A stretch of DNA of 64,000 bases from a phage. The notes beneath the pieces were generated by a model. The model ran no database searches. It was not told the DNA's origin and worked only from the letters and a program-made list of their open reading frames with translations. This document shows positions 4,184 through 61,735 of this stretch, in pieces. Made by a program: the position numbers and the translations under genes. The stretch is taken from assembly GCA_012441205.1 (NCBI GenBank), contig GCA_012441205.1_4705.1. One strand, given 5' to 3'. Position 1 is the first letter of the stretch, and each line of letters begins with the position of its first letter.

Positions 4184-4696
4184 TTAAACTTCTTCGTTTT
4201 CTGAACCTAATGATTCAGCATCTGGATCGTCAACAGGAATGGTTGCATCAAAATACCGTTTCGTATGCGTGGTTGTATATCCTACGCTATCTGTGATGGA
4301 AATCGTAAACGTGACTTCCCTTGCACGGATTAAGCGTAGTTTATTCATGAAGTTACGGAACGGCATCGATCCCCGATTCAACTCCTTAATGACGTTTCCC
4401 CGAATACTGGAAATGTCTTTATTCGTTTTATCAGGGTGTCGTTTCTTCACATCACGCATATGTCGGGTAATATACGAATTGAGCTGATTTGCGCCGATCC
4501 CTCTCTCCGTATAAATCTGCAACAGGAACTCCGTAAGGAAATCCTGTCTACCCGTAGGCGTCCAGAAATTGTTACCGTGATTGTAGTTAGTCGCTCGTCC
4601 TCGATTGCTTTGAGGATTTTCATCATCGCTTTCATCACGACGCTTAAGCGGATTAATGCGTGCGCGGAAAGAGACTTCATTATATTTATTTGTCAT
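4184..4696 (-). CDS. hypothetical basic protein (putative early gene)
   Basis: Track ORF 4184..4741; start MTNKYNEV at 4696 overlaps the upstream stop in an ATGA arrangement (translational coupling). Confidence 0.5.
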   Translation of the reverse strand: MTNKYNEVSFRARINPLKRRDESDDENPQSNRGRATNYNHGNNFWTPTGRQDFLTEFLLQIYTERGIGANQLNSYITRHMRDVKKRHPDKTNKDISSIRGNVIKELNRGSMPFRNFMNKLRLIRAREVTFTISITDSVGYTTTHTKRYFDATIPVDDPDAESLGSENEEV

Positions 4697-5208
4697 AATA
4701 CACCAGTGTACTGACTGAGTGCGAAGGTTAGGAGTTCGCAACAGTCTCTCGCTAGTTTCCTTGTTTTGCGTAATCCATAAGCCGCATCCAAATCGTCACG
4801 TTCCGCCAGCGCGTCTAACCACGTCGCAAGTATGCGTCCATACTCGATAACGTCACGCATGAGAACGTCGAACCGGATAACACGACCATCGGCATCAGCA
4901 AGCCAACGATTGAACGTGATTTGTGGTGCTAGTATTGCATATGTTCTCTCCTCTAATGCGATTATGTTTATGTTGCCTTCGTTATCGAACGCTTGATGCC
5001 AACGGCGAAGGTCAAGCATCAACGACTCAGCGTCCATATACCACAACGGTAAATACGTTTTACGTGCAACGCGTATATCGTAGATGTTGTGAACCCAGGA
5101 CGTTGTTTTGTAAAGCAACAAGAGTTCGTTTAACCGTTGCCTATCATCTTGAAACGTCTTCCTTTTATAACGTTGGAACGCACGCCTCAAGAAAAAGCGA
5201 TGTAACAT
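4693..5208 (-). CDS. hypothetical protein (putative early gene)
   Basis: 171-aa ORF directly downstream of the promoter-like motif pair at 5258-5313. Confidence 0.55.
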   Translation of the reverse strand: MLHRFFLRRAFQRYKRKTFQDDRQRLNELLLLYKTTSWVHNIYDIRVARKTYLPLWYMDAESLMLDLRRWHQAFDNEGNINIIALEERTYAILAPQITFNRWLADADGRVIRFDVLMRDVIEYGRILATWLDALAERDDLDAAYGLRKTRKLARDCCELLTFALSQYTGVL

Positions 5209-5257
5209 GGCATCACCTATGTATCATTCTTGCAGGCATCAATGAAGCCATCACAAG

Positions 5258-5313
5258 AAGGTAACGTTATACGTCGCCTTCATGACTGTCATCATGAAGG
5301 TAATATAGTCCTG
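5258..5313 (-). promoter_or_regulatory. tandem promoter-like motifs (AAGGTAACGTTATACGTC and AAGGTAATATAGTC on + strand; minus strand reads ...TATATTACCTT)
   Basis: Same motif family recurs at 18418, 30976-31038 and 59181, each just upstream of a minus-strand gene block. Confidence 0.45.
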
Positions 5314-5341
5314 TTATTTTTTTCAATACGGAGAATGTAAA

Positions 5342-13882: not shown

Positions 13883-15223
13883 ATGATTAGTATTTTTGGT
13901 TTTTATACGTACAAAGGGTACGCTAATAACCACCCAAAAACCACGGCGAAATTCGGTGAGTTCAGTCAGCACAGTGCTACGTTCAGTCGCGAAATCGGCA
14001 TCTATACCAACACGGCGTACGCACGTACGACCTTATTAGTGTTGAATGCCGAAAACGAAGCTGGTGAAGCACAAACGCTGAATGACGACACCGCAGGCCG
14101 CATTCTTCAGGTTGGTCAATGGTTGCTGGAAAAAGCCTCATCAGGCGAAATCCAGGATGACCGAGACCAGGTTATCGGCTACCTAAAAGACGACTTCACA
14201 ACGTATCTGGATTCTATCGACATCCCAACACCCACCACCGATGGTACCGTCTATCTACCGGCGTGGATCAGTTTCAAGATAACCGCCACCGGCGATGTCG
14301 TCAAGATTTGGTTGTCTGATAGCGTATTCCAAAGTCAATATCCAAAATACGAATATGAAGTCGTTCCCCCTGTTCCTAAGGATCAGTTAGATACCTTCTT
14401 CGAAGATCTGGCAACATTGAAGAAACTGGTTGACAGTCGAAGCAGCGAGAAACTGACCGAAGAAATCAACGAGGTGCGCGACCAATTCCCAGACACACAA
14501 TTGTGGACGAAAACATATAAAGCGTACGATTACACCGACGATTCGAAATATATTAATACCGATTGGACGGTGATTATCTACGGTGCAGCAGGTAACAACA
14601 TTGATAATATCAAGGAGTTCCTGCAAAACTGGATTCTTAGCAATAGCACGCACGGACGTCCAGACTGGGAAATCGTTCTGCCGGATCTTTTTATTCCGAC
14701 GGAACACATCTTCATTCCAATCTGGAACCGCCACAGTGCGCCAGAAATGACCAATCAGGCACGTATCTATAGTCCTATATTCGATGATTCGTTGATGGAT
14801 ACCTACCTGAAAAACTTTGCTGATGGTTACGGCGAAACCGCCGAAGTCCGTAAATCGCTTCAAGCGGTGCCGACGTTGTGGCGCTCGATCGGTTTCTTAA
14901 GCGTTGGTAACTCACGTAACCGAGACGGTAAACTTAAGTTCTACGATCGTTGGCCGCAATACGCGCTCATCAGCACAACCAGCATCGATATTAACCGTAT
15001 CGATGATGCGACACGTGAATTCATCACGTTCACTTACGAAATGCTGAAACTGGCAGAATCGCTGACCGAAGACGACCCGGTACCGTTGGGTTATAGTCGT
15101 GTTACGCGTGGTAGCAATAGCTTCTTAGCGAAAAGCCACAACGATGTTCAGTATCTCTTCTTAACAAAAGAAGCGTTCCTGAAGAAAATGCCGGATGAAG
15201 CCGACACGCCTGTTGGAGGTTGA
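13883..15223 (+). CDS. hypothetical protein
   Basis: Track ORF 13847..15223; ATG at 13883 has GAGGA 6 nt upstream. Antisense ORF 14387..14863 judged spurious. Confidence 0.6.
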   Translation: MISIFGFYTYKGYANNHPKTTAKFGEFSQHSATFSREIGIYTNTAYARTTLLVLNAENEAGEAQTLNDDTAGRILQVGQWLLEKASSGEIQDDRDQVIGYLKDDFTTYLDSIDIPTPTTDGTVYLPAWISFKITATGDVVKIWLSDSVFQSQYPKYEYEVVPPVPKDQLDTFFEDLATLKKLVDSRSSEKLTEEINEVRDQFPDTQLWTKTYKAYDYTDDSKYINTDWTVIIYGAAGNNIDNIKEFLQNWILSNSTHGRPDWEIVLPDLFIPTEHIFIPIWNRHSAPEMTNQARIYSPIFDDSLMDTYLKNFADGYGETAEVRKSLQAVPTLWRSIGFLSVGNSRNRDGKLKFYDRWPQYALISTTSIDINRIDDATREFITFTYEMLKLAESLTEDDPVPLGYSRVTRGSNSFLAKSHNDVQYLFLTKEAFLKKMPDEADTPVGG

Positions 15224-15225
15224 TT

Positions 15226-15852
15226 ATGGCTGTAACACGCATGACGCCAAGTCCCGGTGCGGTCGGGGTATTCACAGTATCAGCGCCGTTTACCGTTGGT
15301 GCGTCAACGCTATATACCGTTACAGCGTTGCGAAGATTCAGCGAAGTCATCGGTAGTGGAATCGATCTATTTACGGAACTGTACGAACCGTTATCAATAG
15401 ACAAATCCACATTCGAAGCGCATCTCGAAGCGAATGCTTATCTCGTCACGTTGCAACCGGATTACGGTGCACCCGTACTGGTACCTGATACGTATATCAC
15501 GTCGTACCCAAAGAACGATTCATTGCGGTATCGTCGCATTATTCTGGGTATCGATTTCGGGCCTCTTCCTCCCGGTCTTGACCTTTCGTATTTAACAACG
15601 ATATTGAAAGGTAAGGCCAGTGATATTCTTGGTGTCGAACCTGAAGTTAAAACGATGGAAATCACTCTCGATGATACCGTTACTCAGGAACAACATCAGA
15701 TAAACGAAGCCCGTCGTCAGGCCGCGATAAAAGAGCGAGATACCATATACGCACGTTGTGAAACGCAAGAGAAGCAGATAACGGCTTTACTTGCAACCCA
15801 AAAGCAACTTATCAAATTGCTTCAAGACGCCGGTATCAATCCGACACCTTAA
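15226..15852 (+). CDS. hypothetical protein
   Basis: ATG at 15226 preceded by GGAGG; start overlaps stop of upstream gene. Confidence 0.55.
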   Translation: MAVTRMTPSPGAVGVFTVSAPFTVGASTLYTVTALRRFSEVIGSGIDLFTELYEPLSIDKSTFEAHLEANAYLVTLQPDYGAPVLVPDTYITSYPKNDSLRYRRIILGIDFGPLPPGLDLSYLTTILKGKASDILGVEPEVKTMEITLDDTVTQEQHQINEARRQAAIKERDTIYARCETQEKQITALLATQKQLIKLLQDAGINPTP

Positions 15853-17735: not shown

Positions 17736-18392
17736 TTAGCTTGCAGCTTCTTCATTTGTATCAGGTTTGCTTCCCCCTAACAAACCGTCAAACAGACCCG
17801 TATGTTTCAGGTAGAAGAGAGCGATAGCGCCCATTGCTGCTGCGCTCGTCGCCGTTAACGCAACCCCGGCACGATACTGCCATTTACGGTCAGGCTTTTG
17901 ATCAAGAGCCATACGACGCATGTATTCAGCCTCTGCTTCATTCCGATGAATTTCGGATTCAGCCAAGCGGGCTAAGGTATCGCGGTCAAGGTTATCATAA
18001 CGTACGTTCATGGTGGTTTCCTCTTGTTTGGAAGTTGATTGCTTAGTGGATTCTTGGTCAACAGTCGTTTCAGATGGTTCAAACGGCTGGTTGTTCATTT
18101 TCTGATCTTTATTGGTCATGATAGACTCCTTCGATTTTTGAGACGAAATTGATTTAAACCATCGTGGATGGCGGTATTCAGTTTTACATGTGCAGTTAAG
18201 TTTCTCGTGCAGGAAAGCGTAAAAACGTTTTGCGCCTACACGTAAGGCTTTCAGCATTACCCATCCACGAGCACTCAAACGGTGTAGCTGTTGCGGTATG
18301 TCGAGTTTCCTAGCCAAGCGAAAGTATCTTTCAATCACTTCGATAGGAAACCATTGTTGTTCCACATCGGTGAGACTGAAAGTCTTATCCAT
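17736..18392 (-). CDS. tail-anchored membrane protein (basic N-terminal domain, acidic middle, C-terminal TM helix)
   Basis: C-terminal ALTATSAAAMGAIALFYL hydrophobic segment; first gene after promoter-like motif at 18418. Confidence 0.5.
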   Translation of the reverse strand: MDKTFSLTDVEQQWFPIEVIERYFRLARKLDIPQQLHRLSARGWVMLKALRVGAKRFYAFLHEKLNCTCKTEYRHPRWFKSISSQKSKESIMTNKDQKMNNQPFEPSETTVDQESTKQSTSKQEETTMNVRYDNLDRDTLARLAESEIHRNEAEAEYMRRMALDQKPDRKWQYRAGVALTATSAAAMGAIALFYLKHTGLFDGLLGGSKPDTNEEAAS

Positions 18393-18417
18393 GATTGAAA
18401 TCTCGCTGGCTTACTTC

Positions 18418-18438
18418 ACTTAAGTAATATAGCCGTGA
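18418..18438 (-). promoter_or_regulatory. promoter-like motif (TTAAGTAATATAGCCGTGAAA on + strand; TATATTAC core on minus strand)
   Basis: About 30 bp upstream of minus-strand gene 17736..18392; same family as 5298, 31018, 59181. Confidence 0.45.
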
Positions 18439-18542
18439 AAAATGTTGGATTAAGTTAAATACCGCAACCGCAGCTAATTTTATAGGCTTTTAGCCTAAAC
18501 CAATCATCTTCGGAATCATCATCTTTGAAACAGGAATCTATC

Positions 18543-27649: not shown

Positions 27650-28012
27650 TTAAAGCGTTCTGAAGAGTTCTGTAGCGTTCTCGTCACGTAGGCAGGCTTC
27701 GTTCAACAATTCAGCTAACAGCTTCGACCGAACTTCAACAAATGTCCTGAGGCGATGCTCCCATTCTAAACGGATAGTGTACGTATTATCCAGGTTTTTG
27801 TAATCAACGACAGATGTAGAACAACGGGCCTCGCGTTTGTTCACAGCACTCCAAACATCACGGATAACCGTCACGCCTTTCTTGGTACACGTAAACGTTA
27901 AAATAAAGCGATTATTCGCAGCTTCTTCACGGACGCCAACAAATTCACTTCGCAACGATGAGACTTTGATCAGTCGGTCAATAGCTAACGATAAACCGAT
28001 ACGTTGTTGCAT
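27650..28012 (-). CDS. hypothetical small protein (putative early gene)
   Basis: 120 aa; stop 2 nt from the next start. Confidence 0.5.
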   Translation of the reverse strand: MQQRIGLSLAIDRLIKVSSLRSEFVGVREEAANNRFILTFTCTKKGVTVIRDVWSAVNKREARCSTSVVDYKNLDNTYTIRLEWEHRLRTFVEVRSKLLAELLNEACLRDENATELFRTL

Positions 28013-28013
28013 A

Positions 28014-28439
28014 TCAAATTCCTTCTTTCAGAATCTCATTAAGACCGTCAGTAATCCAGTCGAACTTCGTCTTAATCATGGCTGGGTTCAATCCATATAC
28101 TTCCCACACAAGCTGGGGTTTATGTGTTCCATCGTCCAAACAAAGCACATCGATTGAGAGTACCATACCACCCGTCAATTTCATGTTCTCGCAACTACGA
28201 AGATATGCGGATTCTAGCAATACTTTCCCTAACGCAGTGCAAGCAAATGTTAACCGGGAAGAGTACAGGTACGATGACGTTTTACAGTAGGTTGCTGATA
28301 TCGGTTGAATATGTTTGCGGAGTTTGGCGTCTTCACGTAAAAGCAATAACGTGTGATGTAACCGCGTATGCTCGGTAACCGATGAGCTATACTCACCGAT
28401 ACACTCTTCGGCGACTGATTTAGGCCATTTAATTTTCAT
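28014..28439 (-). CDS. hypothetical small protein, paralog-like with 28455..28898
   Basis: N-terminus MKIKWPKSVA resembles MEIKFCKSIA of the neighbour. Confidence 0.5.
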   Translation of the reverse strand: MKIKWPKSVAEECIGEYSSSVTEHTRLHHTLLLLREDAKLRKHIQPISATYCKTSSYLYSSRLTFACTALGKVLLESAYLRSCENMKLTGGMVLSIDVLCLDDGTHKPQLVWEVYGLNPAMIKTKFDWITDGLNEILKEGI

Positions 28440-28454
28440 GTTCGATTCCTCGTA

Positions 28455-28898
28455 TTAACACTGTGTTCCATTCGATAAGCGGGTGGTATCAAAACGATCC
28501 AGTTGGTGTACAATGCTATCAGCAACACGATGCAAATAGTGTATTTTGTCCATTCGTGAAATCGCAGAAATCGTCCAGCAAGCCTCTGACGTCCAATAGG
28601 TGCCGTCTTCACTAAGGCTAACGTTATAAACTAACTTCGTCATCACATTTCTCGCCTTATGCTCAGCAGACCAGAATATGTTTTCTAACACATCCTTCCC
28701 CGTTTGTGAAAACACGAACCCAAGCTTCACGTCGAAGTCGGATGCTTCAAGATTAACGCAGTGAAGATGATTCTCTAACGGCGCAAAAGAGGCTAAACGT
28801 TCCAGCGCATGTTGCAGTGTGGGATGATCGAGCTTTTCGAGATCATCCGCAGGTTGTTCAGGTACAATCGCGATCGATTTACAGAATTTAATTTCCAT
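28455..28898 (-). CDS. hypothetical small protein, paralog-like with 28014..28439
   Basis: 147 aa; similar N-terminus to neighbour. Confidence 0.5.
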   Translation of the reverse strand: MEIKFCKSIAIVPEQPADDLEKLDHPTLQHALERLASFAPLENHLHCVNLEASDFDVKLGFVFSQTGKDVLENIFWSAEHKARNVMTKLVYNVSLSEDGTYWTSEACWTISAISRMDKIHYLHRVADSIVHQLDRFDTTRLSNGTQC

Positions 28899-29010
28899 GG
28901 TAGGTTCCTCTTGATAGTGGTTGATGATAGTAACGGGGACGGCGATGTCCCCTTGGTTTCTTATTGCCCCGCCTGTACCCGATGGGGTACAGGCGGGTGA
29001 TGTTGATGCG

Positions 29011-29418
29011 TTATAGCGGCATCAGACGTTCTTTAAGTTGGGTTAACTTATTTGCAACGATGTTCTCAACGTCGATCATCTTGTTCATGTTGTCGAGGGT
29101 ATCCTGCCAGATGAAAATATCCACGGAACCGGTTCCGACTAACGCGTTCTCAGGACGATGGTCACGGGTCACGTAGCGTGGTCTCTGCGGGCAGGTTTGT
29201 AACTCGATCCAAAGCGCATCTAACGGACCACGGTCCGTGACACCTAAGGCGAAGAATTCACCTCGTACGACCAGAACATCATCAGCCGTCCTGACACGGG
29301 TTGATCCTTCGTACACCAATTCCATCTTTGCTCGACAGGCTGGGTTCTCGTTCCACGCCTGGACGGCATCGGCAAGGGCTATTGACGTTGCGGTGGTGTT
29401 CGTTTGATCATGTTGCAT
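29011..29418 (-). CDS. hypothetical small protein (putative early gene)
   Basis: 135-aa ORF. Confidence 0.5.
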   Translation of the reverse strand: MQHDQTNTTATSIALADAVQAWNENPACRAKMELVYEGSTRVRTADDVLVVRGEFFALGVTDRGPLDALWIELQTCPQRPRYVTRDHRPENALVGTGSVDIFIWQDTLDNMNKMIDVENIVANKLTQLKERLMPL

Positions 29419-29495
29419 TCTAAGCTCCTGTAACGCTCTCTAAGCGTCGTTTTAAGTTAAGGTATAGTTTCCCTTCTTTGGATTCGTTTATTGCG

Positions 29496-29771
29496 TTATA
29501 CGGCTTTTCTGTGCGCGTAGAACGCCTTCGTTCCGTTGTTGATTGCTTCAACCACATCCCGGGTTAACACAACGGCGTTATCGCTTCGAGACGACGGTGC
29601 GTAATACCCTTCACCGTTCTCGGTAATCAGGCGATAACGGACTAAGCCTATGCTCGGTTCAACACGTAGCACCTTCTCAAGTTTGTATTTGATGATCTTC
29701 GTCAGGCTAACCGTGTCTGACGCGTAGATCGCTTTATAAACTTTGTTCTTTGCTGTGGGTTTCATCAACAT
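29496..29771 (-). CDS. hypothetical small protein (putative early gene)
   Basis: 91-aa ORF. Confidence 0.45.
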   Translation of the reverse strand: MLMKPTAKNKVYKAIYASDTVSLTKIIKYKLEKVLRVEPSIGLVRYRLITENGEGYYAPSSRSDNAVVLTRDVVEAINNGTKAFYAHRKAV

Positions 29772-29811
29772 GATTTCTGTTGTATTTTCCTTTTCGCTTG
29801 TTGGTGTTGGA

Positions 29812-30111
29812 TTAATGTTTAGGTTCCGTTTTGTGTTGTGCGAGTAATGTGTTGATCTGCTCCCGTTGTTCTTTTAAGCATGCAGGAAGCTGGTCTTCCC
29901 GTACCGTTCCGATTTCCAACGTGATGTACCAACGTTGTTCGGAAGCCTGCCATTGAAAACTGCTCTGTAACCTCAGGATGCTAGGATCACGTACCTTGCT
30001 TGCACTGTAACGGTTGAACCAATCCAGGTATGCTGCTTTCCCTTCCTCGTCAGCGATGTAACGCTGCACGCTGTTCTTCCCTTTGTTCTCGTATCCCGTT
30101 GCACGTATCAT
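29812..30111 (-). CDS. hypothetical small protein (putative early gene)
   Basis: Track ORF 29812..30165; start MIRATGY at 30111 overlaps the upstream stop as ATGA. Confidence 0.45.
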   Translation of the reverse strand: MIRATGYENKGKNSVQRYIADEEGKAAYLDWFNRYSASKVRDPSILRLQSSFQWQASEQRWYITLEIGTVREDQLPACLKEQREQINTLLAQHKTEPKH

Positions 30112-30890
30112 GCGAACGTTTCTCCTGTAATGTGTTGCGGATGGCGTAGCATGGTAGCATCCCATTGTACGATCTGGCTTCGGCTTACCCGCATCATGAT
30201 GGATTCGTCATCAAGCCCCTGTTGCGCAACCGGCAACCAACGTTCCCCAAGCACCTTCGCTTCAACACGTTTCTTGCGTGGGTTGTAACGCACCTCGCTA
30301 ACCCAAGCGAATCCAAGCGGATGGACTACCCGTGGATAAAACATGCGAAGCAATTGATGCATCCGATCCGTTGCCTCCAATTTGCCATCCACCATGTAAG
30401 GTTTCACCATGGTAAGCTTTTTGGTGTAATACGTTCCAACGGTATGGTTACGCCAACTTGGCAAGGCATGATCCCCTTCTCTCAGTTTGCTATCCGAGTT
30501 CATTGACCAGACCTGCTGTTTACCGGCCAGCATCGCGTACTGCCGATCAACGCAACGAACCCGATCGGCGAACAATGGATCCAGGACATCATCCACCGCG
30601 CCCTTATTGCGATAACCGTGATGTACCACCAACCTGCTTGCGCTCATCGATGCGGGATGCTGGCTCTTATGCGCATACAGCCCTCCGTCACCGCGAGCGT
30701 CGTAAAGATAACCGCATGCGCCACGCCATATCACCTTGCCTACGGTTCTCTCGTCTTCAAGCAGCATCGTCGGCCCATCAAGCAAATTGGTGAACCACTG
30801 CACCTTCACGCATTCCGCTTGGACATGCTCAGGTAATGCCTGATACTCTTTTTGGGTGTATAAGGTATCAAAAATGATTTCTTCGTTCAT
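30108..30890 (-). CDS. hypothetical protein, first gene after the AT-rich control region
   Basis: 260-aa ORF; no motif recognised. Confidence 0.55.
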   Translation of the reverse strand: MNEEIIFDTLYTQKEYQALPEHVQAECVKVQWFTNLLDGPTMLLEDERTVGKVIWRGACGYLYDARGDGGLYAHKSQHPASMSASRLVVHHGYRNKGAVDDVLDPLFADRVRCVDRQYAMLAGKQQVWSMNSDSKLREGDHALPSWRNHTVGTYYTKKLTMVKPYMVDGKLEATDRMHQLLRMFYPRVVHPLGFAWVSEVRYNPRKKRVEAKVLGERWLPVAQQGLDDESIMMRVSRSQIVQWDATMLRHPQHITGETFA

Positions 30891-31717
30891 TTAAAAAGTT
30901 CCTCTGTTTCACGTTAATTAAACAACGTATTGATTTCTATTTGACAGAATACGAACATCGTACGTATCTATCACTTAGGTAACGCTTACGCGTCGCGTTC
31001 ATGATACCATGCATCATGAAGGTAATATAGCCGTGAAAGGATTTGTGTTAACGCAAGGGTTTTGTTTGTTTTTTAAGAAGGGATGGATTTAGAAGAGGTG
31101 TTTCAAGGAAGGTAAACGAGAATAGGTATTTTGATTTAAGTAAGATGTTATCTGTATCCGTTAGAAGTGTATTGTCTAAGTTATCTTGTTTATCTTAGGT
31201 TTAATCGTTTTTATCTTGGTATGTTTAAGTTGTTTTTATTTAACTGTTAAAATGCTTATCTTCAAAACAATGGATAACATGTGTTTACTACGCTCGTTGA
31301 GTTATAACTCAACGGTAACACATGTCATCTGTGCATTACACTACGTTACATGCTAGTTAAATCGGATAACTCAAAAAAACATTTGTGATACTCTTCTTCA
31401 CGTTGTTCATCAGAGTATCTCGTCTATACTCATTGCATTCGTATACGACATAACCGTTACACGCTAACGCTACGCTTATAGCTTGATAACTCTAAGGATA
31501 AAAACATAAACTCGCTTCGCTCGTTTAGTTTTTCTTTTTCTTAGAGTTATCCTGTTGCTCGTCTCTAAAGGACTTCGCTCCTCCCCCGTCCCCCGAAGGG
31601 GCCGAGGTCGTGGAAATTTTACTTTCCAAATACATTTACAACATCTGTAAACTTTTACTCCAGGTACTTAATCTTATCATTAGAAATTATAAAAGAGAAA
31701 ATAAACACAAACATAAA
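30891..31717. other. AT-rich ORF-free region with direct and inverted repeats (candidate origin / promoter cluster / ncRNA locus)
   Basis: About 830 bp with no ORF of 60 aa or more; five TTATCT(T/G) repeats (31150-31260), GGATAAC/GAGTTATC repeats, palindrome CGTTGAGTTATAACTCAACG; no tRNA-like T-loop seen. Confidence 0.5.
30976..31038 (-). promoter_or_regulatory. tandem promoter-like motifs (TTAGGTAACGCTTACGCGTC and GAAGGTAATATAGCCGTGAAA on + strand)
   Basis: Minus strand reads CACGGCTATATTACCTTC; 90-130 bp upstream of minus gene 30108..30890. Confidence 0.45.
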
Positions 31718-31750
31718 CCTTCCCCCGACCCGTAAGGGAAGGAGGAAGGG
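31718..31750. terminator. nested hairpin element downstream of minus-strand gene 31761..32654
   Basis: CCTTCCcccga-CCCgtaaGGG-aa-GGAGGAAGG. Confidence 0.55.
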
Positions 31751-31760
31751 AGAGATTAAA

Positions 31761-32654
31761 TTATTCGGAAACGTTATAACCGAATACTGCTTTACCGTAG
31801 GTGTGAGTACCGTCAGCTAACGACAGCACCAACACATGGTTGTATGTAGCGTTAACGCCTTTATCGGTAGACCCGGTGGTAGCACCGTTATAGACAAAGG
31901 TAGCTGTTTGCAGATTGGTTTTCAGTTCATTGATGATATCATCACTTACACCAGTCTGTTCTTTAATCAGGGTGGTCAGGTTACCCGCTAAGCCTGCATC
32001 GATCTTGGTATCGTTACTGGTAATAGCTTGTAAACCTGCGGTGTAAGTACTGAAGTCTAACGGATAGGTTAACAGACGTGCTGAGGTCTTGGTACCATCG
32101 CCTTCATCAACGTAGGTTAAGTTACCCAGATTGGTAACCTTGATGATGTTAGCCAGATCCAGCGTGGTGTTATAAACTTTAACTTGAACAGAGCCATACC
32201 ACGCCAACGAATCTTCTTTGGCTTCCAGGGTGATCGTCTGGATACCATGCTGGTCGAAGGTAACCGGCGTAGCTAACGTTTCGGCTTTGATGTCTTTCGC
32301 TTTATCCAGGAACTTCTCACCGGAAGGCGTGATCATACCGTAGCGTTGAGCTACAAGGTCAACCACATCACCGATGGTGGTGTTCGCCTCAACGTTAACA
32401 CGTACAGCGATCTTCTGGAACCACTTAGCCAGATCCAGACGATGGTAGGTGACATCTCGGTTATTGAAGTAAGGGGTACCTTCACCAGGACTAAGTGTTA
32501 AAGTTGCTTCTGGAGCAGAAGGATTCTTTTCTTTAAGGACGTATTTAAGGTCGGTATATTTAAAGCTGGCACCAGTGTCAGCGTTAAGCTGGTTGATCTC
32601 ATCAACGATAAGTTGCCAAGGTGTTTTTAAAGTAAGCGATACTTGAGCAGTCAT
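31761..32654 (-). CDS. YYDR-domain paralog family member (structural protein candidate)
   Basis: Internal start MTAQVSL with GAGGAAG SD; shares YHRLDL ... LAWYGSV ... GYNV motifs with 43714, 45536, 46398 and 32794 genes. Confidence 0.55.
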   Translation of the reverse strand: MTAQVSLTLKTPWQLIVDEINQLNADTGASFKYTDLKYVLKEKNPSAPEATLTLSPGEGTPYFNNRDVTYHRLDLAKWFQKIAVRVNVEANTTIGDVVDLVAQRYGMITPSGEKFLDKAKDIKAETLATPVTFDQHGIQTITLEAKEDSLAWYGSVQVKVYNTTLDLANIIKVTNLGNLTYVDEGDGTKTSARLLTYPLDFSTYTAGLQAITSNDTKIDAGLAGNLTTLIKEQTGVSDDIINELKTNLQTATFVYNGATTGSTDKGVNATYNHVLVLSLADGTHTYGKAVFGYNVSE

Positions 32655-32793
32655 TTTCTTCCTCGATAGTTGGTACATCACTCTCAAAAGATGTAAGTGT
32701 TTACAGAAATTAATATATTTTATATTAAATGTGAATATTATGGAGAACGACTCCGAATCTCCTTTTCGACCATCAAAATCAGAGGACACGAAC

Positions 32794-33339
32794 ATGTCTA
32801 CTTTAGACTTTAACAAAGCAGCGAAATCCCTTCTGCTTGATCTTATTAACACCAAAGCGACCCGCACATTGGCTGAAGAAGAACTGCAGTTCGGTACTCC
32901 GCAGGAATCTTCCGAACATGAAAAGAACACCGTTATTCAGCTGGACGCGGCGGCTGAAGCAGCTAACCTGCAGGGTACTCAGCAGTTCTACTACGATCGT
33001 CTGGCTCTGTCTGACGTTTTCGCTGATGTAACTGGTGATGTTACTTTCGAACTGCCGCACGGTACTGACAGCATTCAGGCTTCTGAGCTGGTAAGCAAGC
33101 TGGTCACCAAATTCGGTCTGGCTTCCCTGAATGGTGAAATCAGAGAAGAAACCTTCCAGCTGTCTGCCGGTACTGTTGATGAGGTAATTCTGAATGCGAT
33201 CGAGGGTGGCCTGGTATACACTGGTACTCTGCGAGTTGCCCTGACCTACGCACTGGCACCAAAAGACGAACTGGCAACCGTTCTGGCGAATAACGTAGCT
33301 GAAGGTTTCGAGAAACCGACCGTTAGCGTTGTTGGCTAA
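32794..33339 (+). CDS. abundant small virion protein candidate, minimal member of YYDR-domain family
   Basis: Strongly biased E. coli-like codon usage; FYYDRLAL ... FGLASL ... LVYTGTLRVAL matches the family domain; GAGGA before ATG at 32794. Confidence 0.6.
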   Translation: MSTLDFNKAAKSLLLDLINTKATRTLAEEELQFGTPQESSEHEKNTVIQLDAAAEAANLQGTQQFYYDRLALSDVFADVTGDVTFELPHGTDSIQASELVSKLVTKFGLASLNGEIREETFQLSAGTVDEVILNAIEGGLVYTGTLRVALTYALAPKDELATVLANNVAEGFEKPTVSVVG

Positions 33340-33632
33340 TAAGCACATAGAGCAATAGTATGGGTTTTGTACAGCTCGGCTATTGATCTTCTACAATTTG
33401 GTTGTAACAATCTGCGTGGTTGCACGCTTATCTTTCTCATTGAACGCTTCGTATGAAGCGTGGTGTTGAAAGGGTTGTGGATCTCCTCAAGCGGCCAGGG
33501 ACCCAGACCAACCTGAATAAACACAAACACATGTTAAGCCCCTCCTCATCCGTTATTGGGTGGGGGGGGTCTTATACGTCTTTATGCGTTCCGTTCGTTC
33601 TGGAGCGTTTTAGGACGGTTTATGATGGTGTT

Positions 33633-34268
33633 TTACTCAACACTGAACCCGTTCAAGATGATCGCTTCATAACGCTTACGTTCACGACGTTTGCGTGCCT
33701 GCCAACCGTAGATGAATTTCTCATCTTTCTCACGACGTTCCGCTAATTCGATGTAATAGGTGCTCTGCATGTCCAGCATCGCATCGATGAGATAATCCTT
33801 ACCGGTTGCACCACGCTTAGCGATGTAAGCGTCGAGCGCGCTTAACGTCGCAGGTCCCATCAAACCGTCGGCGTTGATATTCTTCCAGTACGTTTGTCGG
33901 TTGTTCATGACGTTCAGATAACGTTGGAGGTTCTTAACCGGGACGGTTTTGCCAGCATTGATACCCAGGTCAAAGAGACGGTCAGCTAAGAACACAGAAC
34001 GTTTCATGACTTCGTCAAGTTTCATCTTATCCCAGAAGTGGGTCTTGTAGATAAAGAACGCCATTTCCGTGGTAAGGTTACGCATGTTACCGTCCCAGCC
34101 GAATTTCGTTTTCAGCGTGGTTTTGTATTGATCGGCGAGTGTTTTCGTAATGCCGTGGTTCGTGATTCCACCCGAGTCATCGGGATCGTCGACGTAACCT
34201 GCTTCGATGCTGGTTTTATCGCGAATGATAAATTCGCACGTGAAATCTTTCTCAGTAATCTTAGCCAT
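33633..34268 (-). CDS. endolysin, GH108-type muramidase with C-terminal peptidoglycan-binding domain
   Basis: EAGYVDDPDDSGGITNHGIT matches the GH108 signature EGGYxxDPxDxGGxTxxGIT; Trp/Gly-rich C-terminal half is consistent with PG_binding_3. Confidence 0.75.
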   Translation of the reverse strand: MAKITEKDFTCEFIIRDKTSIEAGYVDDPDDSGGITNHGITKTLADQYKTTLKTKFGWDGNMRNLTTEMAFFIYKTHFWDKMKLDEVMKRSVFLADRLFDLGINAGKTVPVKNLQRYLNVMNNRQTYWKNINADGLMGPATLSALDAYIAKRGATGKDYLIDAMLDMQSTYYIELAERREKDEKFIYGWQARKRRERKRYEAIILNGFSVE

Positions 34269-34394: not shown

Positions 34395-36443
34395 TTAAAT
34401 ACCCTTGGTTCCCTTCACGTGATGTGCAATTTCTTCAACCATTGCACGCAGAGCACGAAGTTGTTGGTCATGTTCGTACCAACCACCCAACAGAACCCCG
34501 CTATACACCATGGTGTCAAGACTTAACAGCCCTTTATCTGATACGTTGATCATTTCCGGGAACTGTTCTTGAACACGCTGTGCGATAACACCGATCTTCT
34601 CGACATCAGGATCGTAGTTGTGACGGAAACGGGCAAGTCCGGTATACGCCATTTCACGTAAACGATCACTGAAAGATTCCGGATGATCTTTCAGATAACG
34701 AATGTCATGTTTACTACGTTCATCCGAGCGAATGTAAGCGTTAGGAACATCGATATTGCTGTTGAAGTACAGCGCACTACCACCGCCTGCAGAGTTCCCC
34801 CAATAGAAGCGTGTGATCTCACCGCCACCATTCTCCGTGATGATGACATGTTTACCTAAACGCGTACCGCCACTACCATCAACGAAGACCAGTTTGTTTC
34901 CGCTGTAAGAACCCCAGAACAAACGTGTATCGATGATGTGCGTTGCAGCGAGGCGGGCGTTACGTGGCGTAGAATACACGGTGTTAACATCTTGCTGCGC
35001 TTGCGCATCGGAAGCGATACCATAGTTCTGTACGTTACCTAACCCAACCTGCGCTTTCGTAACCGCGTGTGGGTTATCACGACGGTTAGCGTGAGCGTTA
35101 ACCAGATCACCCGCTAATTTCTGAATTGCCCAGTTGGTAGACTGTGGTGTCATGTAACGGTTAGTTGCAGAACCACCTTGCGCTTCAGCTTGGTTAGCGG
35201 TTGGATAGTTCTCAACGCTTCCCAAACCGACCTGCGCTTTGGTTACTCTGTGTGGGTTGTTCTTGTCAGCGATGTGCGCATTAAGCGGAACTAACGCAAA
35301 GGTCTCAATGGACGCTTTGGTTGTGTTCGGTGCCATTAATCGGTTAGCTGCAACACCGGCACGCGCTTCTTCTTCAGAAGCCATCGGATAGTCTTGCACA
35401 TTCCCTAACCCAACCTGCGCTTTGGTTACTCTGTGTGGGTTGTTGTAATCGGCTTTATGTGCATTAAGTGGAATCAATGCGAACTGTTCAATCGCTGCAA
35501 CAGTGCGTAGCGGCGTCATGAAACGGTTGTTCGCTGTTCCGGCTTTCGCCTCATCATCCGAAGCGGTCGGGAAGTTATCAACGTTCCCAAGGTTAACCTG
35601 TGCTTTGGTGACGCTATGCGGGTTGTCTCGACGGTTAGCGTGAGCGTCGACTAGATCGCCCGCCAGTTTAGCAATCGCCCATCCAACCGTTTGTGCTGTC
35701 ATGTAACGGTCTGGTGCGGTACCGGCTTCTGCCTCCGCCTTGTTGGCAGTAGGATAGTTCTGTACATTACCTAGTCCGACTTGGGCTTTTGTGGTTTCGT
35801 GCGGGTTATCGGTACGGTTAGCATGTGCGTAATGCAGATCGGTCAGATCTTTATCCGCTGCTTGCATGTCTTTGCGTAACTGATCGATTGCCGCCCAGAG
35901 ACGGTTATCGGATGCAGCATCACCGATAAGTATTGCGGCTTTCAGTGAATAGATCGCTAAGCAAAGATGTTCGGTACCGTAGATAGCACTAACGTGGTGG
36001 ATGTGTGGTTCAGGCGGATAAAGTTCCGGTTTGTTCTTGATGTCGTCCCAGTTGATCGGACGATCGTCAAGTTTGAGTTCTTCGATAGCCTGATACAACG
36101 CGTCAATAAGACTTACGTAAACACCACCGATGATACGATAGTCGTTAACTAACGTCCCCTCGATATCATCGTTGATGATGGCGATGGCTGCACAGATTTC
36201 TTTACCAGCGTAAAGCGTAGCGTCCTGATACAAGAAGATGGGTTTGTAATCCACGCCGCGTACCAGTGTCTTACCGGTAAGCTTTTCAGTGATGACCAGA
36301 CTTTCGGTGAAGAACGGTCCGCCATCAAGAGCGTAACATTTGTTCTCGGTTCGTGGAACGGTATGCTCTTCACCAACGATGTGGTTGCTATCGAGCGTGC
36401 CGGTCCAGTCCTCGGGGTACTTCAGGGTAATTGGTGTTGACAT
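34395..36443 (-). CDS. tail fibre protein with five ~45-aa fibre repeats and C-terminal intramolecular chaperone (S74-like) domain
   Basis: Five repeats of NRxDNPHxVTKAQVGLGNVxNY...NRYMT (about 35125-35835); C-terminal SDERSKHDI ... GVIAQRVQEQFPEM ... LRALRAMVEE resembles the autoproteolytic chaperone of endosialidase/T5 pb1-type fibres. Confidence 0.8.
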   Translation of the reverse strand: MSTPITLKYPEDWTGTLDSNHIVGEEHTVPRTENKCYALDGGPFFTESLVITEKLTGKTLVRGVDYKPIFLYQDATLYAGKEICAAIAIINDDIEGTLVNDYRIIGGVYVSLIDALYQAIEELKLDDRPINWDDIKNKPELYPPEPHIHHVSAIYGTEHLCLAIYSLKAAILIGDAASDNRLWAAIDQLRKDMQAADKDLTDLHYAHANRTDNPHETTKAQVGLGNVQNYPTANKAEAEAGTAPDRYMTAQTVGWAIAKLAGDLVDAHANRRDNPHSVTKAQVNLGNVDNFPTASDDEAKAGTANNRFMTPLRTVAAIEQFALIPLNAHKADYNNPHRVTKAQVGLGNVQDYPMASEEEARAGVAANRLMAPNTTKASIETFALVPLNAHIADKNNPHRVTKAQVGLGSVENYPTANQAEAQGGSATNRYMTPQSTNWAIQKLAGDLVNAHANRRDNPHAVTKAQVGLGNVQNYGIASDAQAQQDVNTVYSTPRNARLAATHIIDTRLFWGSYSGNKLVFVDGSGGTRLGKHVIITENGGGEITRFYWGNSAGGGSALYFNSNIDVPNAYIRSDERSKHDIRYLKDHPESFSDRLREMAYTGLARFRHNYDPDVEKIGVIAQRVQEQFPEMINVSDKGLLSLDTMVYSGVLLGGWYEHDQQLRALRAMVEEIAHHVKGTKGI

Positions 36444-45535: not shown

Positions 45536-46387
45536 TCAGTTATATTGCATCAACAGGATACCGCCGTAGTTCGTGCAGTAATCTTGGCTAAGCGTAACGA
45601 TAACAGCGTTAGCGAACGCAGGGTTAACAGGATAACCCTGTGCGATAAGTTCTGTTGTTTTACCGGTTGCAAGCACGGTGGCTCCGTAAAGGTTGTTTTC
45701 GTCTTCACGGCCGTTATAAACCCATGGGGTTGGCGCAACGTTGTTGAATAAGCTAACCAATGCGCTTAAGTTACCACCAACTTTTAACCCGGCGAGATCG
45801 GAACGGATAGCTGTACAGTCTATAGCGTAACTGTAGACCAATGCCTGGATACGATTTGCGGTGTAGTACGGGAAATTGAGACCGGTCATCACCGAAGTCT
45901 TCATCATCCCCGCAATATCGTGGGCACTATCGAGGAGATAGAACGTAACACTTCCCGTCCAAGCCAATCCGGTTGTTTTCAATTCTACGGTGTGAGGGAA
46001 CGGATACTCATCACCTCGTACGATCGGAGAATCGACGCAGCTATCCTGATCGATAACGATTCCGTACGTTGATTGAATCAGAGGGATAAGATCGTGCGTT
46101 GTTTTAACCCCAGCATCGATAGCAAGCTTCGGTTCCATTCCCAAGAAGAAGTCTTGGATAGGGATACGATCGTACCACACGTAGCTGCTTTCGCGGTATT
46201 GTGCTGGTGTTACTGTTGCCGAAGGGGATACCTTAGCGCGAGTGTTTCGGCTATACGCGTGGTTTCCGTTTTCAGCAACATCCGTGATATCAATTGCATC
46301 GAAGTTAAAGTCGAAGTCAGGATTGGCTGCCTGAATAAGTTCAGCGACCAGTACTTTAGGACTTTTGTTTAACAATTTCTGACTCAT
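45536..46387 (-). CDS. YYDR-domain paralog family member
   Basis: VWYDRIPIQ ... LAWTGSVTFYL ... QDYCTNYGGILLMQYN. Confidence 0.6.
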   Translation of the reverse strand: MSQKLLNKSPKVLVAELIQAANPDFDFNFDAIDITDVAENGNHAYSRNTRAKVSPSATVTPAQYRESSYVWYDRIPIQDFFLGMEPKLAIDAGVKTTHDLIPLIQSTYGIVIDQDSCVDSPIVRGDEYPFPHTVELKTTGLAWTGSVTFYLLDSAHDIAGMMKTSVMTGLNFPYYTANRIQALVYSYAIDCTAIRSDLAGLKVGGNLSALVSLFNNVAPTPWVYNGREDENNLYGATVLATGKTTELIAQGYPVNPAFANAVIVTLSQDYCTNYGGILLMQYN

Positions 46388-47392: not shown

Positions 47393-49804
47393 TTAAACGT
47401 CCTCGATAGGCAAAGGTTTAACAATCAAACGATTGAGCGGATTCGATAGACGCATACTGATAGGCTTATACGCAGCATGATTCGTCTCACTTAGAGCCAC
47501 TGATCTGAAACGACCGTTCAACTGTTTGTAAATCGGTTCTATCCAGAGACCTCGAAGATCACGTTTACGGAAACGTTGTTCGAACGGTTTGATTGGGGTT
47601 ACGGTTAACCCACGCAACGACTCTGATGGCAGACGCTCACGAAGGTCGCGTGGTGCCCGACCTGGGAACGGTGCAAGCCACAAACCATCGAGCGGATTTT
47701 TACGGAAACGCAACGAGACAGGATCGCTAATGACTTGTGCCCAATATTGCGTACTGAATCGAACGGTTTGGGTGTTCTCGTAACCACTACAATCACACCA
47801 GGTTGGTTTCGGAGGCGCTTCCAAACTTTCAACCGCTGATTCACGCCAGTTCGTCATCGGGTTGTTATCATGCACGAATTTGATAACTTCCGTAGCCTGG
47901 TTATCCGTATCATGAACGTTTGCCTGTGCCCAGTCTTCCCACAGTTCTTCACTACCACTTACTAAACTCGAACCGAGACGAACGGCGATTTTATTTAGTG
48001 GTTTGATTGGGTCACTGTTGATTGTCTGGATAAAATGGATGGTGTAACTGCTCAATGTCTTAAGCAGCTGCAGCATTCCGTATTGAATATCCTTAAGACT
48101 GGTGACATCTTCCAAATCCTGGCCGGTGGCCTTTGTGAAGATATCGAGAGCCAGAATACCCGCCTCTTCTTGACTGATTGCGTCAAGCTCCCAATCCATC
48201 GATAAGAACCATTCCTTGTAAAGCTGTCCAATACCGAAGTCGACACCAACATCCATGTAGAAGTTTTCAACGATTGCTTCAGCCATGCCTCGAGCTTGAT
48301 AATGTTCTTGGAGCTGATACATGAACTGATGGCGACGCCAGCCCTGGTAAATCTCGGTAACGGCGCTCAGAAACTCTTCAGTACTGACGACAGCACGCAG
48401 CGTCACTTGCTTATCCAAACACCACCAGATCAGTTTATCGGGAATGATAGCAGGATCGGTAATGCTACGGAGATGGTCGAATGTCGGTAGCGTTAACACC
48501 CTGACGTGGTTAGCATGGATCTTAGGTACTTCAATCAGCGTCATGCCCATCGAATAGTTCAGCAAATACAAGAACAGCTTGTATGCATCTTTCATCGACA
48601 TCGTCATGGTATCACCCGTCACCGGGTTGGTTGTCGTTAACCGTGACTGATACATGCCTATCGCGCTAAGATGAATCCATTCGTTCAGCAGGAAATCATA
48701 CTTAGGATACAGTTCACTGTCTGTAAGGTCTTCGGCTTCACTTTCCAACACCTTGGTCGTTAAGGTATTGTTGTCATGCATCGACATCTTCTCTATCGTG
48801 CGGTTAAGCTCGGTATAATACTCCGCTTCGTTATCCCGCGCTAAAGGGAACTGTTGCTGCATCACGGTGGTGACCTTACGTCTTACCGTGCCATTACCGA
48901 CGATCTCTTGAAGGTTAAGCGGTTTACGCTCCATGTAAACAGCAGGTTTTAACGTCTGGGGTATCTCGGAAGCGTCTTGTTTGATCGAGAACGCACCGAT
49001 TGGAATTCCACGATCGGTTAATACCTTTTGAATGAGCTTATCGTAGTTTTCCGTTCTGCCCATGTTTCTTTCAACGTAAGCGATGTTACGATAGAACCAG
49101 AGCATTTGGGATTCGGTCATGTATCGCTTGAATCGATCGAGACCTTGATGGCTTGCCAGATAACTCCAGATATGGAAGCTATGGGCATAATGGGTATGAC
49201 AGTTTTCCCAACGAATACCTTTTATCATCTCAGGTATTTGTGTGAATAGGATGGCGTATAGCGCAGGCCAATGAAGCATATCGACGCTCTCGTATGCCGG
49301 ATGTTCCCAGCGTCTGAAGTAATCGTCGATTTCTTGCTGTAAACGTGGAATAAGATTGGCCTCGCGTGACTCAACCTCTTGTGTATCGTACCAGAGAATC
49401 TCATGATTGCGTGCCGCAATTGCTTTCTCGATATCGATGGGGTTAAGGATACCCAAGATCAACATACGTTGTTCCGGGTACCGCGCAATTAAACGATTGA
49501 AATAATCTCCACCATACGCGTACTCCCTTGCCGTCATGCGATGCCGTAACATGTTTTCCTTAGTGAACTCGATCTCTTCGAGCGTATCCAGGGAATTTAC
49601 GGTCATCATTGTCTGACAAGGATGATACTCGCCAGCGAGATTCATGTAGTATAACCACGTGCGTGGGTCGTCCCCGACGGCCATCTGGTAGACTTCGGAA
49701 ACCTTGAGGTTTAACCGTTCTGCCGTGATGTCGCTTTTAATAATCAGGGTGTCCGTTAGACGCTGCACGCTTTCCGAATAAAGCTGATAGTCAGTGTTGG
49801 ACAC
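47393..49804 (-). CDS. large hypothetical protein with C-terminal R/L/W repeat motifs
   Basis: Track ORF to 49873 (TTG); GTG at 49804 has GGAGGA 6 nt upstream. C-terminus repeats SLRFRKNPLDGLWLAPF / RKRDLRGLWIEPIYK / RFRSVALSE. Confidence 0.55.
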   Translation of the reverse strand: MSNTDYQLYSESVQRLTDTLIIKSDITAERLNLKVSEVYQMAVGDDPRTWLYYMNLAGEYHPCQTMMTVNSLDTLEEIEFTKENMLRHRMTAREYAYGGDYFNRLIARYPEQRMLILGILNPIDIEKAIAARNHEILWYDTQEVESREANLIPRLQQEIDDYFRRWEHPAYESVDMLHWPALYAILFTQIPEMIKGIRWENCHTHYAHSFHIWSYLASHQGLDRFKRYMTESQMLWFYRNIAYVERNMGRTENYDKLIQKVLTDRGIPIGAFSIKQDASEIPQTLKPAVYMERKPLNLQEIVGNGTVRRKVTTVMQQQFPLARDNEAEYYTELNRTIEKMSMHDNNTLTTKVLESEAEDLTDSELYPKYDFLLNEWIHLSAIGMYQSRLTTTNPVTGDTMTMSMKDAYKLFLYLLNYSMGMTLIEVPKIHANHVRVLTLPTFDHLRSITDPAIIPDKLIWWCLDKQVTLRAVVSTEEFLSAVTEIYQGWRRHQFMYQLQEHYQARGMAEAIVENFYMDVGVDFGIGQLYKEWFLSMDWELDAISQEEAGILALDIFTKATGQDLEDVTSLKDIQYGMLQLLKTLSSYTIHFIQTINSDPIKPLNKIAVRLGSSLVSGSEELWEDWAQANVHDTDNQATEVIKFVHDNNPMTNWRESAVESLEAPPKPTWCDCSGYENTQTVRFSTQYWAQVISDPVSLRFRKNPLDGLWLAPFPGRAPRDLRERLPSESLRGLTVTPIKPFEQRFRKRDLRGLWIEPIYKQLNGRFRSVALSETNHAAYKPISMRLSNPLNRLIVKPLPIEDV

Positions 49805-55753: not shown

Positions 55754-57553
55754 TCAATCGATTATGTCGTGATCGTTAATTTCTACAATTTCTTCATCGA
55801 ATCGACCGACGTCTTTCTTCAAGCCTGCATTGGTTGCTGCAACGTCATTTGCAATTTGTGGGGTAATGATTAACCGACCGCGCTCATCGATAGGTGCGTA
55901 CATACTGAACTTCTGACGTCCGGTTGGTTCGGAGTGTGGAAGATTCAGATAGCTTGCACAGAACGGGATGGAACCACTAACCAAACGACTCTCGTCAGCC
56001 AATGCAGCACCGCCTGCGTTTTGGCTCTGGAGAACAACATGCGTGCTCACTTTGAACAGCATGCAATCACCCGGTGACTGAATCGATGTTGCCACTTTCT
56101 CACGTTTATCACGATTGCTCTGGATATTGAGAATCGCTTCCGTTGCAACTTGATTTCGCAACGCCTTCTGTACATCACGATTGGTCATCTCTTTACGGTT
56201 GTTCTGTCGTTTACCACGTTCTGTGGTTTTAAGATGGAACCCCAGTTTAAAGATGCTCTTACGCACATCCTCCATGACATATTCCAACACCATCAATTCC
56301 TTACCGAACATCGTCGTGGTATCAACACGACTCATTTCGATAGTGACATTGTCAATCAGATACGCCATAAATTCGTAGAAGTCGTCGCAAGGAATATTTT
56401 CCTGTTTGAACTTCTTCTGTTGAATTTCATCAACGTAAAGATCGAGACTGTCGATGTGGTGGTTTACATCACGCAACAAACGCGCATCCGCGTTGTTGTT
56501 ATTAAAGATAATCAAACCGAGTAATGTACGCCAATGGTCTGGCGCATTCGCGAACTCTTCAACCGGATAGTCTTCCGGAAAACGATCGTAATAACGGTCG
56601 ATGAGATACAAGAATGCACCGACAAGGCCAAGAACAATACGTTCCGTGCCTCCACGTCTTACTGCAATTTGAATATCAGGATGTTTGTAACGTACAGCGC
56701 TAGCGCTACGGCTTTTACCGCTTTTGCTGATACTAAAACCTTTAGGAATAACCCCCATGGTGCGATAGATTACCCATTGGTCACGCGGAAAATCACGTTC
56801 AGCAAGGTTCCGTCCGGTTACGGCTTCGACACCTGCAAAACGTCGGAAACACTCACCCACCCCGTACTTCGCAAAGAGATAGTGACCCAGTGTGGTTACG
56901 CTGGTGTGGTTGATGTTGTCACCGTTCACTTTACTTTGTTTGGTAAGATGATAGATTTGTGACCAGGGTAATGACAGGTAATGACGATAATCGATACCGG
57001 TCGGTGTATCATTGCTCAGGAACTGATACGGTGTACGTTTAACCGTGATTTTGTCACGCGGAAGCATGATGAACGCCATGTCTTTCGTGTAACTGATTAC
57101 CGGGTCAGCGAGCACTGCACTGAGAATGAAGTTCGCACCACGTAGACGCATTTTACCACCCTGACCTACCGCGGGTAATAGGAGAGGATGTCGGATAATG
57201 CAGTAGTCCTTTCCGGGTTCACGACGGTCACCTGATTCCATCGCTCCGTACCAGCGGAATTCTAGCATCACCATAAACACATCGGATGGCGCAAGGTCGA
57301 AGGTCAGCTTACCGCTATCCTTCCCTTTGGTTTTCTTTCCTCCGCTTAAGTAGTGGAACTGTTCGCGGGCCATACAGCGACGCAGGCCATGATACACCAG
57401 ATCCTTAGGTAAACTATCTTTGCTGTTCCGCCAAAGACGATCAACATAGGACTCAACATCTTGCATCTTATCGACGACGATGTTGCGTGCTATCTTCTCG
57501 TTCATCTTCGGTGCAAGCCCAGCGACAGCTTTGCAGAATCTAGGATCCATCAC
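55754..57553 (-). CDS. 599-aa hypothetical protein in putative early operon (worth testing as nuclear-shell/chimallin-like)
   Basis: Long ORF tightly linked to neighbours; no motif recognised. The chimallin idea is pure inference from size and operon context. Confidence 0.55.
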   Translation of the reverse strand: MMDPRFCKAVAGLAPKMNEKIARNIVVDKMQDVESYVDRLWRNSKDSLPKDLVYHGLRRCMAREQFHYLSGGKKTKGKDSGKLTFDLAPSDVFMVMLEFRWYGAMESGDRREPGKDYCIIRHPLLLPAVGQGGKMRLRGANFILSAVLADPVISYTKDMAFIMLPRDKITVKRTPYQFLSNDTPTGIDYRHYLSLPWSQIYHLTKQSKVNGDNINHTSVTTLGHYLFAKYGVGECFRRFAGVEAVTGRNLAERDFPRDQWVIYRTMGVIPKGFSISKSGKSRSASAVRYKHPDIQIAVRRGGTERIVLGLVGAFLYLIDRYYDRFPEDYPVEEFANAPDHWRTLLGLIIFNNNNADARLLRDVNHHIDSLDLYVDEIQQKKFKQENIPCDDFYEFMAYLIDNVTIEMSRVDTTTMFGKELMVLEYVMEDVRKSIFKLGFHLKTTERGKRQNNRKEMTNRDVQKALRNQVATEAILNIQSNRDKREKVATSIQSPGDCMLFKVSTHVVLQSQNAGGAALADESRLVSGSIPFCASYLNLPHSEPTGRQKFSMYAPIDERGRLIITPQIANDVAATNAGLKKDVGRFDEEIVEINDHDIID

Positions 57554-59032: not shown

Positions 59033-59180
59033 CCTCCATCAGATTGAAAACTATCACGCATAATACATTTCCCTTTTCTTGTTCTTATCGAGCCGACAGC
59101 CGACGGTTTCAGCATCGTTCCTAGCGCGAGAACGACCTTACGTGTTGTCTATGCCTTATTCATCGCAGGCGTCTGTCACC

Positions 59181-59200
59181 TAGGTAATGTAAGCGTCAAA
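59181..59200 (-). promoter_or_regulatory. promoter-like motif (TAGGTAATGTAAGCGTCAAA on + strand)
   Basis: Same family as 5258, 18418 and 30976; about 150 bp upstream of minus gene 57590..59032 and downstream of the hairpin that follows the 740-aa gene. Confidence 0.4.
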
Positions 59201-59234
59201 TTTTTTCTATTCGCAACAATAAACGGCATAGAAA

Positions 59235-59264
59235 CCTCCCCCAACCCTTGCGGGCTGAGGGAGG
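59235..59264. terminator. nested hairpin element downstream of the 740-aa virion protein gene
   Basis: CCTCCCcc-aa-CCCttgcGGG-ctga-GGGAGG; a second small hairpin CCGGA-tgaatg-TCCGG lies at about 59285. Confidence 0.55.
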
Positions 59265-59363
59265 CTGACTTATGTATCACGGTGCCGGATGAATGTCCGG
59301 TGCAATGAAACCATCCGCAACGTTGTCGTCAAGAATATCATCCAACGAAGCAGCTACGGTAGT

Positions 59364-61586: not shown

Positions 61587-61735
61587 TGAAAGTATCCTTT
61601 ACAGAATTAACTTATATAAGTCGGTCGATAGACCATAGCGTACACGCGTGCATGCGCCACTATAGTATCAGTAAACACTTACCGTTATTGAGGTCGTGAT
61701 ACAACACTAAAAATGCCGCATAACTTTTCCCTACG

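Follow-up and report, generated by a model that had tools for sequence, protein, structure and literature searches.

The closest described counterparts of the sites analyzed here are the early promoters of phiKZ and its relatives. The predicted early promoter of phiKZ is TATATTAC, that of 201phi2-1 is given as TTAWTAVAA_HYWTTTRARR_BTATATTACDWHDGTG, and that predicted for N1M2 is TBYAWWWWWTTTCARRYAKATATTATYWAAGTGWA, with OBP and EL listed in the same place (PMC7058600 Table 2). According to a review, early motifs stand upstream of early operons in every jumbo phage that encodes an RNA polymerase and are centered near −10 (PMC7598289), and conservation at −10, −20 and −30 has been described for early promoters (PMC11512511). 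The phiKZ chimallin gene, gp054, has a primary transcription start site with the early motif (PMC8244752). Chimallin is a protein expressed early, and five virion RNA polymerase subunits have been reported in virions of the coliphage Goslar (10.64898/2026.04.21.720040). Our search of the literature on Goslar-like phages found neither transcript 5′ ends or timing data nor a promoter analysis or an annotated promoter set, and a full-text search for TATATTAC returned irrelevant papers only. Promoters of this class, with their core and architecture, have already been published for relatives, and the Goslar-like set described below is an addition to them, correct but ordinary.

Results

The window, by which we mean the whole 64,000-nt stretch of phage DNA analyzed, was compared with sequenced relatives over positions 28000-34000. 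This part is 93% identical, at 94% query coverage, to Escherichia phage vB_EcoM_Goslar (MK327938, 237,307 bp, Goslarvirus), and the nearest pieces in IMG/VR are 90-97.5% identical to the window, none of them fully so. Judged by its sequence, the window phage is a further Goslar-like chimallivirus (Chimalliviridae; phiKZ-type, nucleus-forming jumbo phages). The gene map of the window was transferred from the Goslar annotation, and the intergenic status of sites was judged from it; an ORF that greedy calling had placed over site 1 (see below) was set aside as a shadow ORF in favor of the Goslar annotation. Of the 247 CDS of Goslar, 216 lie on the minus strand; non-coding DNA makes up 7.06% of its genome. 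Terminators are the sole "regulatory" features annotated in its GenBank record, which includes RNAP beta/beta′-like genes among its annotations. No RNA polymerase gene was recognized among the genes of the 64-kb window, and Rfam and tRNA scans of the window gave zero matches.

Read on the minus strand, four intergenic sites in the window share an element of about 37 nt, tTAAt..aaa..TTTCACGgCTAtATTACCTnnGTGA. The consensus nnTAAtncAaaannTTTcAcGnCTAtATTACCTangTGA was derived from 23 different site sequences, which come from the window, from Goslar and from two relatives in IMG/VR. The element has three parts: a block resembling TTAAT, an A/T tract that leads into TTTCACGgC, and an AT-rich core, TAtATTACCT, with a (G/A)TGA box 2-3 nt further on. 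The core is TATATTAC in three of the four window sites and TACATTAC in the remaining one. Substitutions between orthologous sites of four genomes fall at positions that also vary among paralogous sites, namely the G/A before the core and the T/C within it. Sites were scored with a 26-nt position weight matrix (PWM); a 50-nt matrix was dropped as overfitted to its 13 seed sites.

Site 1 lies at 5292-5329 on the minus strand (GTATTGAAAAAAATAACAGGACTATATTACCTTCATGA; 26-nt form at 5292-5317, CAGGACTATATTACCTTCATGA; PWM 31.9), 83 nt upstream of the start of the gene at 4693-5208 (−), which heads a three-gene minus-strand block; its Goslar orthologue is at 226680-226705. Site 2, at 18416-18453 (−; TTAATCCAACATTTTTCACGGCTATATTACTTAAGTGA; 26-nt form at 18416-18441, CACGGCTATATTACTTAAGTGA; PWM 37.8), is 23 nt upstream of the gene at 17736-18392 (−), and its sequence is unchanged in Goslar and UViG_3300045988. 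The locus from which this study set out holds site 3, at 31014-31051 (−; TTAACACAAATCCTTTCACGGCTATATTACCTTCATGA; 26-nt form at 31014-31039, CACGGCTATATTACCTTCATGA; PWM 37.1). It stands 123 nt upstream of the gene at 30108-30890 (−), which leads a group of eight small genes, each hypothetical in Goslar, and is kept in four Goslar-like genomes. Site 4, at 59176-59213 (−; CGAATAGAAAAAATTTGACGCTTACATTACCTAGGTGA; 26-nt form at 59176-59201, GACGCTTACATTACCTAGGTGA; PWM 35.3), lies between two minus-strand genes, 143 nt upstream of that at 57590-59032 (−). An earlier note on this DNA had listed this motif, at 59181-59200, as a variant; with the score just given it is a full member. That note had also proposed a plus-strand variant at 62355-62377, upstream of a DnaB-like gene. 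The gene matches Pfam divDNAB (1e-120), and the proposed site, with a PWM score of −21, does not belong to the family. The genes downstream of the four sites are mostly without family assignment. The exception is the gene at 55754-57553 (−), second in the unit downstream of site 4, which matches PHROG 2943 "polymerase" (1e-119). Its product has 599 aa and no Pfam match, and the unit lies directly downstream of the capsid gene.

The repeated motif described in the earlier note is real: its strings are present at the four loci, and it exceeds chance in both the window and Goslar. The core TAYATTACYT occurs five times in the window where 0.54 copies are expected, and none of 100 shuffles reached five. 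Four copies are on the minus strand, intergenic and embedded in the extended flanks (PWM 32-38); the fifth, at 35763-35772 (+), is in coding sequence and has no such flanks. Searching Goslar for TATATTACCT with at most one mismatch returned 20 matches, 13 of which are intergenic (binomial P = 5e-11), all 13 on the minus strand, and about 25 further flanking positions, outside the search pattern, are conserved across these 13. In a permutation control with 400 10-mers of the same composition, none had more than eight intergenic matches (mean 1.9), as against the 13 observed. A similar frequency inside genes had been named beforehand as a result that would speak against a promoter; the motif proved about 24 times as dense between genes as in coding sequence. 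Per 237-kb Goslar-like genome we count just 13-14 strong sites, fewer than the 28-32 of phiKZ, and the search may therefore have overlooked weaker members.

Of the 2.9 million contigs in IMG/VR, only three contain the extended pattern TTTCACGRCTAYATTACYTNNNTGA exactly; every one of the three is Goslar-like and has between 3 and 7 copies. Relaxing the architecture to TTT-N-A-N4-TATATTAC-N4-GTGA yielded more than 120 loci in IMG/VR; among the 80 matches listed, 43 come from contigs of 180 kb or more, which often carry several matches each. One of these contigs, of 316,674 nt, is presumably 201phi2-1. Unbiased k-mer enrichment in Goslar intergenic DNA (strand-symmetric counts) did not isolate the promoter; what it brought out was mainly terminator stems, T runs and ribosome-binding sites. 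The top k-mers there, GGGAGG/CCCTCC, GGGAAGG-type stems and T runs, point to a stereotyped family of terminator hairpins in Goslar, of which 31718-31742 and 59234-59265 are examples in the window.

The earlier note had proposed that the core matches a phiKZ-type early promoter, and the published sequences bear this out. The 201phi2-1 consensus, which comes from a different phage of a different host, aligns in register with sites 1-4, matching 26, 32, 28 and 29 of its 35 informative positions, and its match to site 2 is the best in the whole window. Over some 128,000 window positions only seven reach 26 matches, the four sites among them, and the three that reach 28 are sites 2, 3 and 4. In the first 50 kb of phiKZ, all seven copies of TATATTAC are on the plus strand, intergenic and 34-72 nt upstream of a plus-strand gene, including the chimallin gene gp054, and their flanks (aaaATTTgAGatTATATTACnnnnTTGA) parallel those of the Goslar-type sites. 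Chimallin allows the two phages to be compared at a single gene. Goslar_00189, which is outside the window, is chimallin (PDB 7SQT, E = 0) and has a perfect site 64 nt upstream, counted from the end of the box to the ATG; the site reads attgaaaaaaATTTCAGGGTTATATTACctagGTGAat in Goslar and aatgaaaaaaATTTGAGATTTATATTACtaaaTTGAat in phiKZ. The gap from core to ATG is 72 nt both in Goslar (172963-172988) and in phiKZ (45568-45575), with unrelated leaders, which hints that the length of the chimallin 5′ UTR is constrained.

Every strong site is on the minus strand, with 23-143 nt (window) or 23-203 nt (Goslar) between its box and the start codon of the following minus-strand gene. All four window sites and 12 of the 13 Goslar sites are intergenic and co-oriented with the downstream gene. 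The thirteenth, at Goslar 49717-49742, is a full-strength site (PWM 34.9) within an annotated 62-aa ORF, Goslar_00047; either the prediction of this ORF is questionable or the promoter sits inside a gene. Eight of the 13 Goslar sites are flanked by minus-strand genes on both sides and have no plus-strand gene to serve. The earlier note had placed each locus upstream of the first gene of a minus-strand block. A minus-strand gene does follow in all four cases, but only sites 1 and 2 precede the head of a block; sites 3 and 4 lie between co-directional minus-strand genes, each downstream of a terminator hairpin, and begin new transcription units inside a minus-strand run. The hairpin at 31718-31742 (−) follows the gene at 31761-32930 (−) and closes the unit upstream of site 3. 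That at 59234-59265 (−), directly upstream of site 4, is a GC-rich stem of 14 bp followed by UUUCUAU (fold −35.9 kcal/mol, z = −5.5) and is likely the terminator of the major capsid gene, so that site 4 falls between this terminator and the next minus-strand gene. Because most sites have no plus-strand gene and sites 3 and 4 follow terminators, the minus-strand reading proposed in the earlier note is right.

Two further features of the window deserve separate mention. A 766-aa open frame at 59289-61589 (+), unusually long, runs antisense across the whole major capsid gene at 59364-61586 (−; homologue of Goslar_00041) and is probably a shadow ORF. Between site 3 and the terminator of the gene at 31761-32930, some 680 nt (31040-31717) hold no ORF of at least 60 aa. 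They contain strong hairpins (e.g., 31485-31504/31532-31551 and 31273-31329) and repeated AAGATAA motifs, have a minus-strand fold z of −3.1, match nothing in Rfam or tRNA scans, and are about 90% conserved in relatives; the Goslar counterpart, 14972-15825, is unannotated. This region could be a non-coding RNA or origin-like.

Two copies of the motif had been claimed at each of 5258-5313 and 30976-31038. Each locus has one full member, and the second copies (5258-5280 and 30976-30996) are degenerate, with PWM scores below zero. That beside site 3, at 30971-30996 (−; GCGACGCGTAAGCGTTACCTAAGTGA; PWM −5.9), keeps TTACCTnnGTGA but reads AGCG at the TATA of the AT-rich core; that beside site 1 is at 5251-5278 (−; GGCGACGTATAACGTTACCTTCTTGTGA). 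Both retain just the 3′ half, TTACCT..TGA, with AGCG or AACG where the core has TATA. Goslar has a single degenerate copy, the counterpart of that beside site 1, at 226647, and we rejected the second copies as a promoter class of their own, as no more instances were found. An 8-bp inverted repeat, TTCATGAT/ATCATGAA, read from the sequence at 30998-31020, separates the full from the degenerate copy at site 3, and at the other tandem locus the two copies are likewise separated by an analogous one (5278-5285/5292-5299). At site 3 an indel unit of 43 nt (window 30974-31012 versus Goslar 15052-15060) corresponds to one degenerate copy plus the palindrome; it is present in the window and UViG_3300011560, absent from Goslar and UViG_3300045988, and bounded by TGAT direct repeats. 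This pattern fits either a tandem duplication or a deletion in which two promoter copies recombined at their 3′ ends.

Discussion

Our analysis makes it very probable that these sites are early promoters of the phiKZ type, read by the injected virion RNA polymerase. The motif, its excess, its intergenic position and orientation and its in-register match to 201phi2-1 are observed directly; for the polymerase, the early timing and the start site we argue from homology. If the phage resembles phiKZ and 201phi2-1 in this respect, the tripartite element of about 37 bp would be recognized by a multisubunit virion RNA polymerase injected with the DNA. With the core centered near −10, the start would fall in or beside the conserved GTGA box, some 6-9 nt past the core. 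Transcription would then proceed leftwards, through operons of mostly small genes of unassigned function, up to an intrinsic terminator.

The sites could instead be read by the E. coli sigma-70 RNA polymerase, with TATATT as the −10 hexamer and the TTAAC/TTAAT block, 16-17 bp upstream, as the −35. Site 3 indeed reads TTAACA-16-TATATT, with 10 of 12 matches, and many sites have a TTAAy-like block at the −35 position. In a scan that required both hexamers, a spacer of 16-18 bp and 9 or more matches out of 12, however, only one of the four window sites passed, and the counts equaled the shuffle expectation. Conservation is strongest where a sigma-70 promoter needs none, in TTTCACGgC of the spacer, in ACCT and in the GTGA box, and the architecture is common to jumbo phages of Pseudomonas and Klebsiella whatever the host. 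Early transcription of phiKZ has, moreover, been reported to be independent of host RNA polymerase (PMC7598289). We consider promoters of this host type very unlikely. Somewhat less improbable, though still quite unlikely, is that the promoters are dual-use in E. coli, serving both the virion RNA polymerase and the host sigma-70 holoenzyme (TTAAC(A)-16/17-TATATT), or that the tandem module of full copy, palindrome and degenerate copy is a regulatory switch rather than a decayed duplicate.

The palindrome beside two of the sites, together with the 43-nt indel, whose short direct repeats show recombination between copies, could also suggest that the element is no promoter but a site, present in several copies, to which a phage regulator binds, or else the remnant of a recombination event or of a mobile element. 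Against this, conservation is limited to about 37 nt, with neither terminal repeats nor an associated gene, position and orientation follow gene starts, and relatives have promoters of this same sequence architecture that were mapped by experiment; such a role or origin seems very unlikely. The chance that the sites work on the plus strand (AAGGTAATATAGCC), for instance as a ...TATAG promoter of T7 type or some other signal serving the plus-strand genes at 5342 and 18525, is very small. It would account for the two window sites in divergent intergenic regions, 30-105 nt upstream of plus-strand genes, but not for sites 3 and 4 or the 8 of 13 Goslar sites, which have no plus-strand gene downstream, and the published family consensus fits the minus-strand reading only.

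Taken as phiKZ-type early promoters, the sites provide an early-promoter map for Goslar-like coliphages; Goslar itself serves as the principal E. coli model of nucleus-forming phages. They mark the operons likely to be transcribed first, within the early infection vesicle, and are candidate parts for phage engineering. Their in-register conservation from Pseudomonas phages to coliphages constrains how a sigma-less virion RNA polymerase reads DNA. Current understanding is unchanged by this result, and its value lies in annotation and in that comparative constraint.

Among known systems, E. coli sigma-70 promoters resemble the element in the −10-like hexamer TATATT and sometimes in a −35-like hexamer, TTAACA, at 16 bp, but the family overall fails the two-hexamer scan and its conserved positions lie outside the sigma-70 contacts. 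OBP, N1M2 and EL, with cores TATATTAT/TACATTAT, have the same TTT-CA-RR-..-ATATTA-..-GTG layout, and 23-30 of 33-35 positions match; their cores end in T rather than C, the phages are more distant, and the promoters there are likewise only predicted. PhiKZ has the identical core TATATTAC, preceded by an A/T tract and a TTT block and followed 4 nt downstream by a (G/T)TGA box. It differs in the block between T tract and core, which is aAAcAG or GAGAT in phiKZ and CACGgC here, and in having 28-32 sites per genome rather than 13-14 strong ones; the present phage, moreover, has a longer core, TATATTACCT, and E. coli as its host, and its sites are predicted from sequence. In 201phi2-1, the RARR block stands where CACG is found here, and the sites are supported by ONT-cappable-seq whereas ours are predicted, yet both phages have the three blocks at equal spacing.
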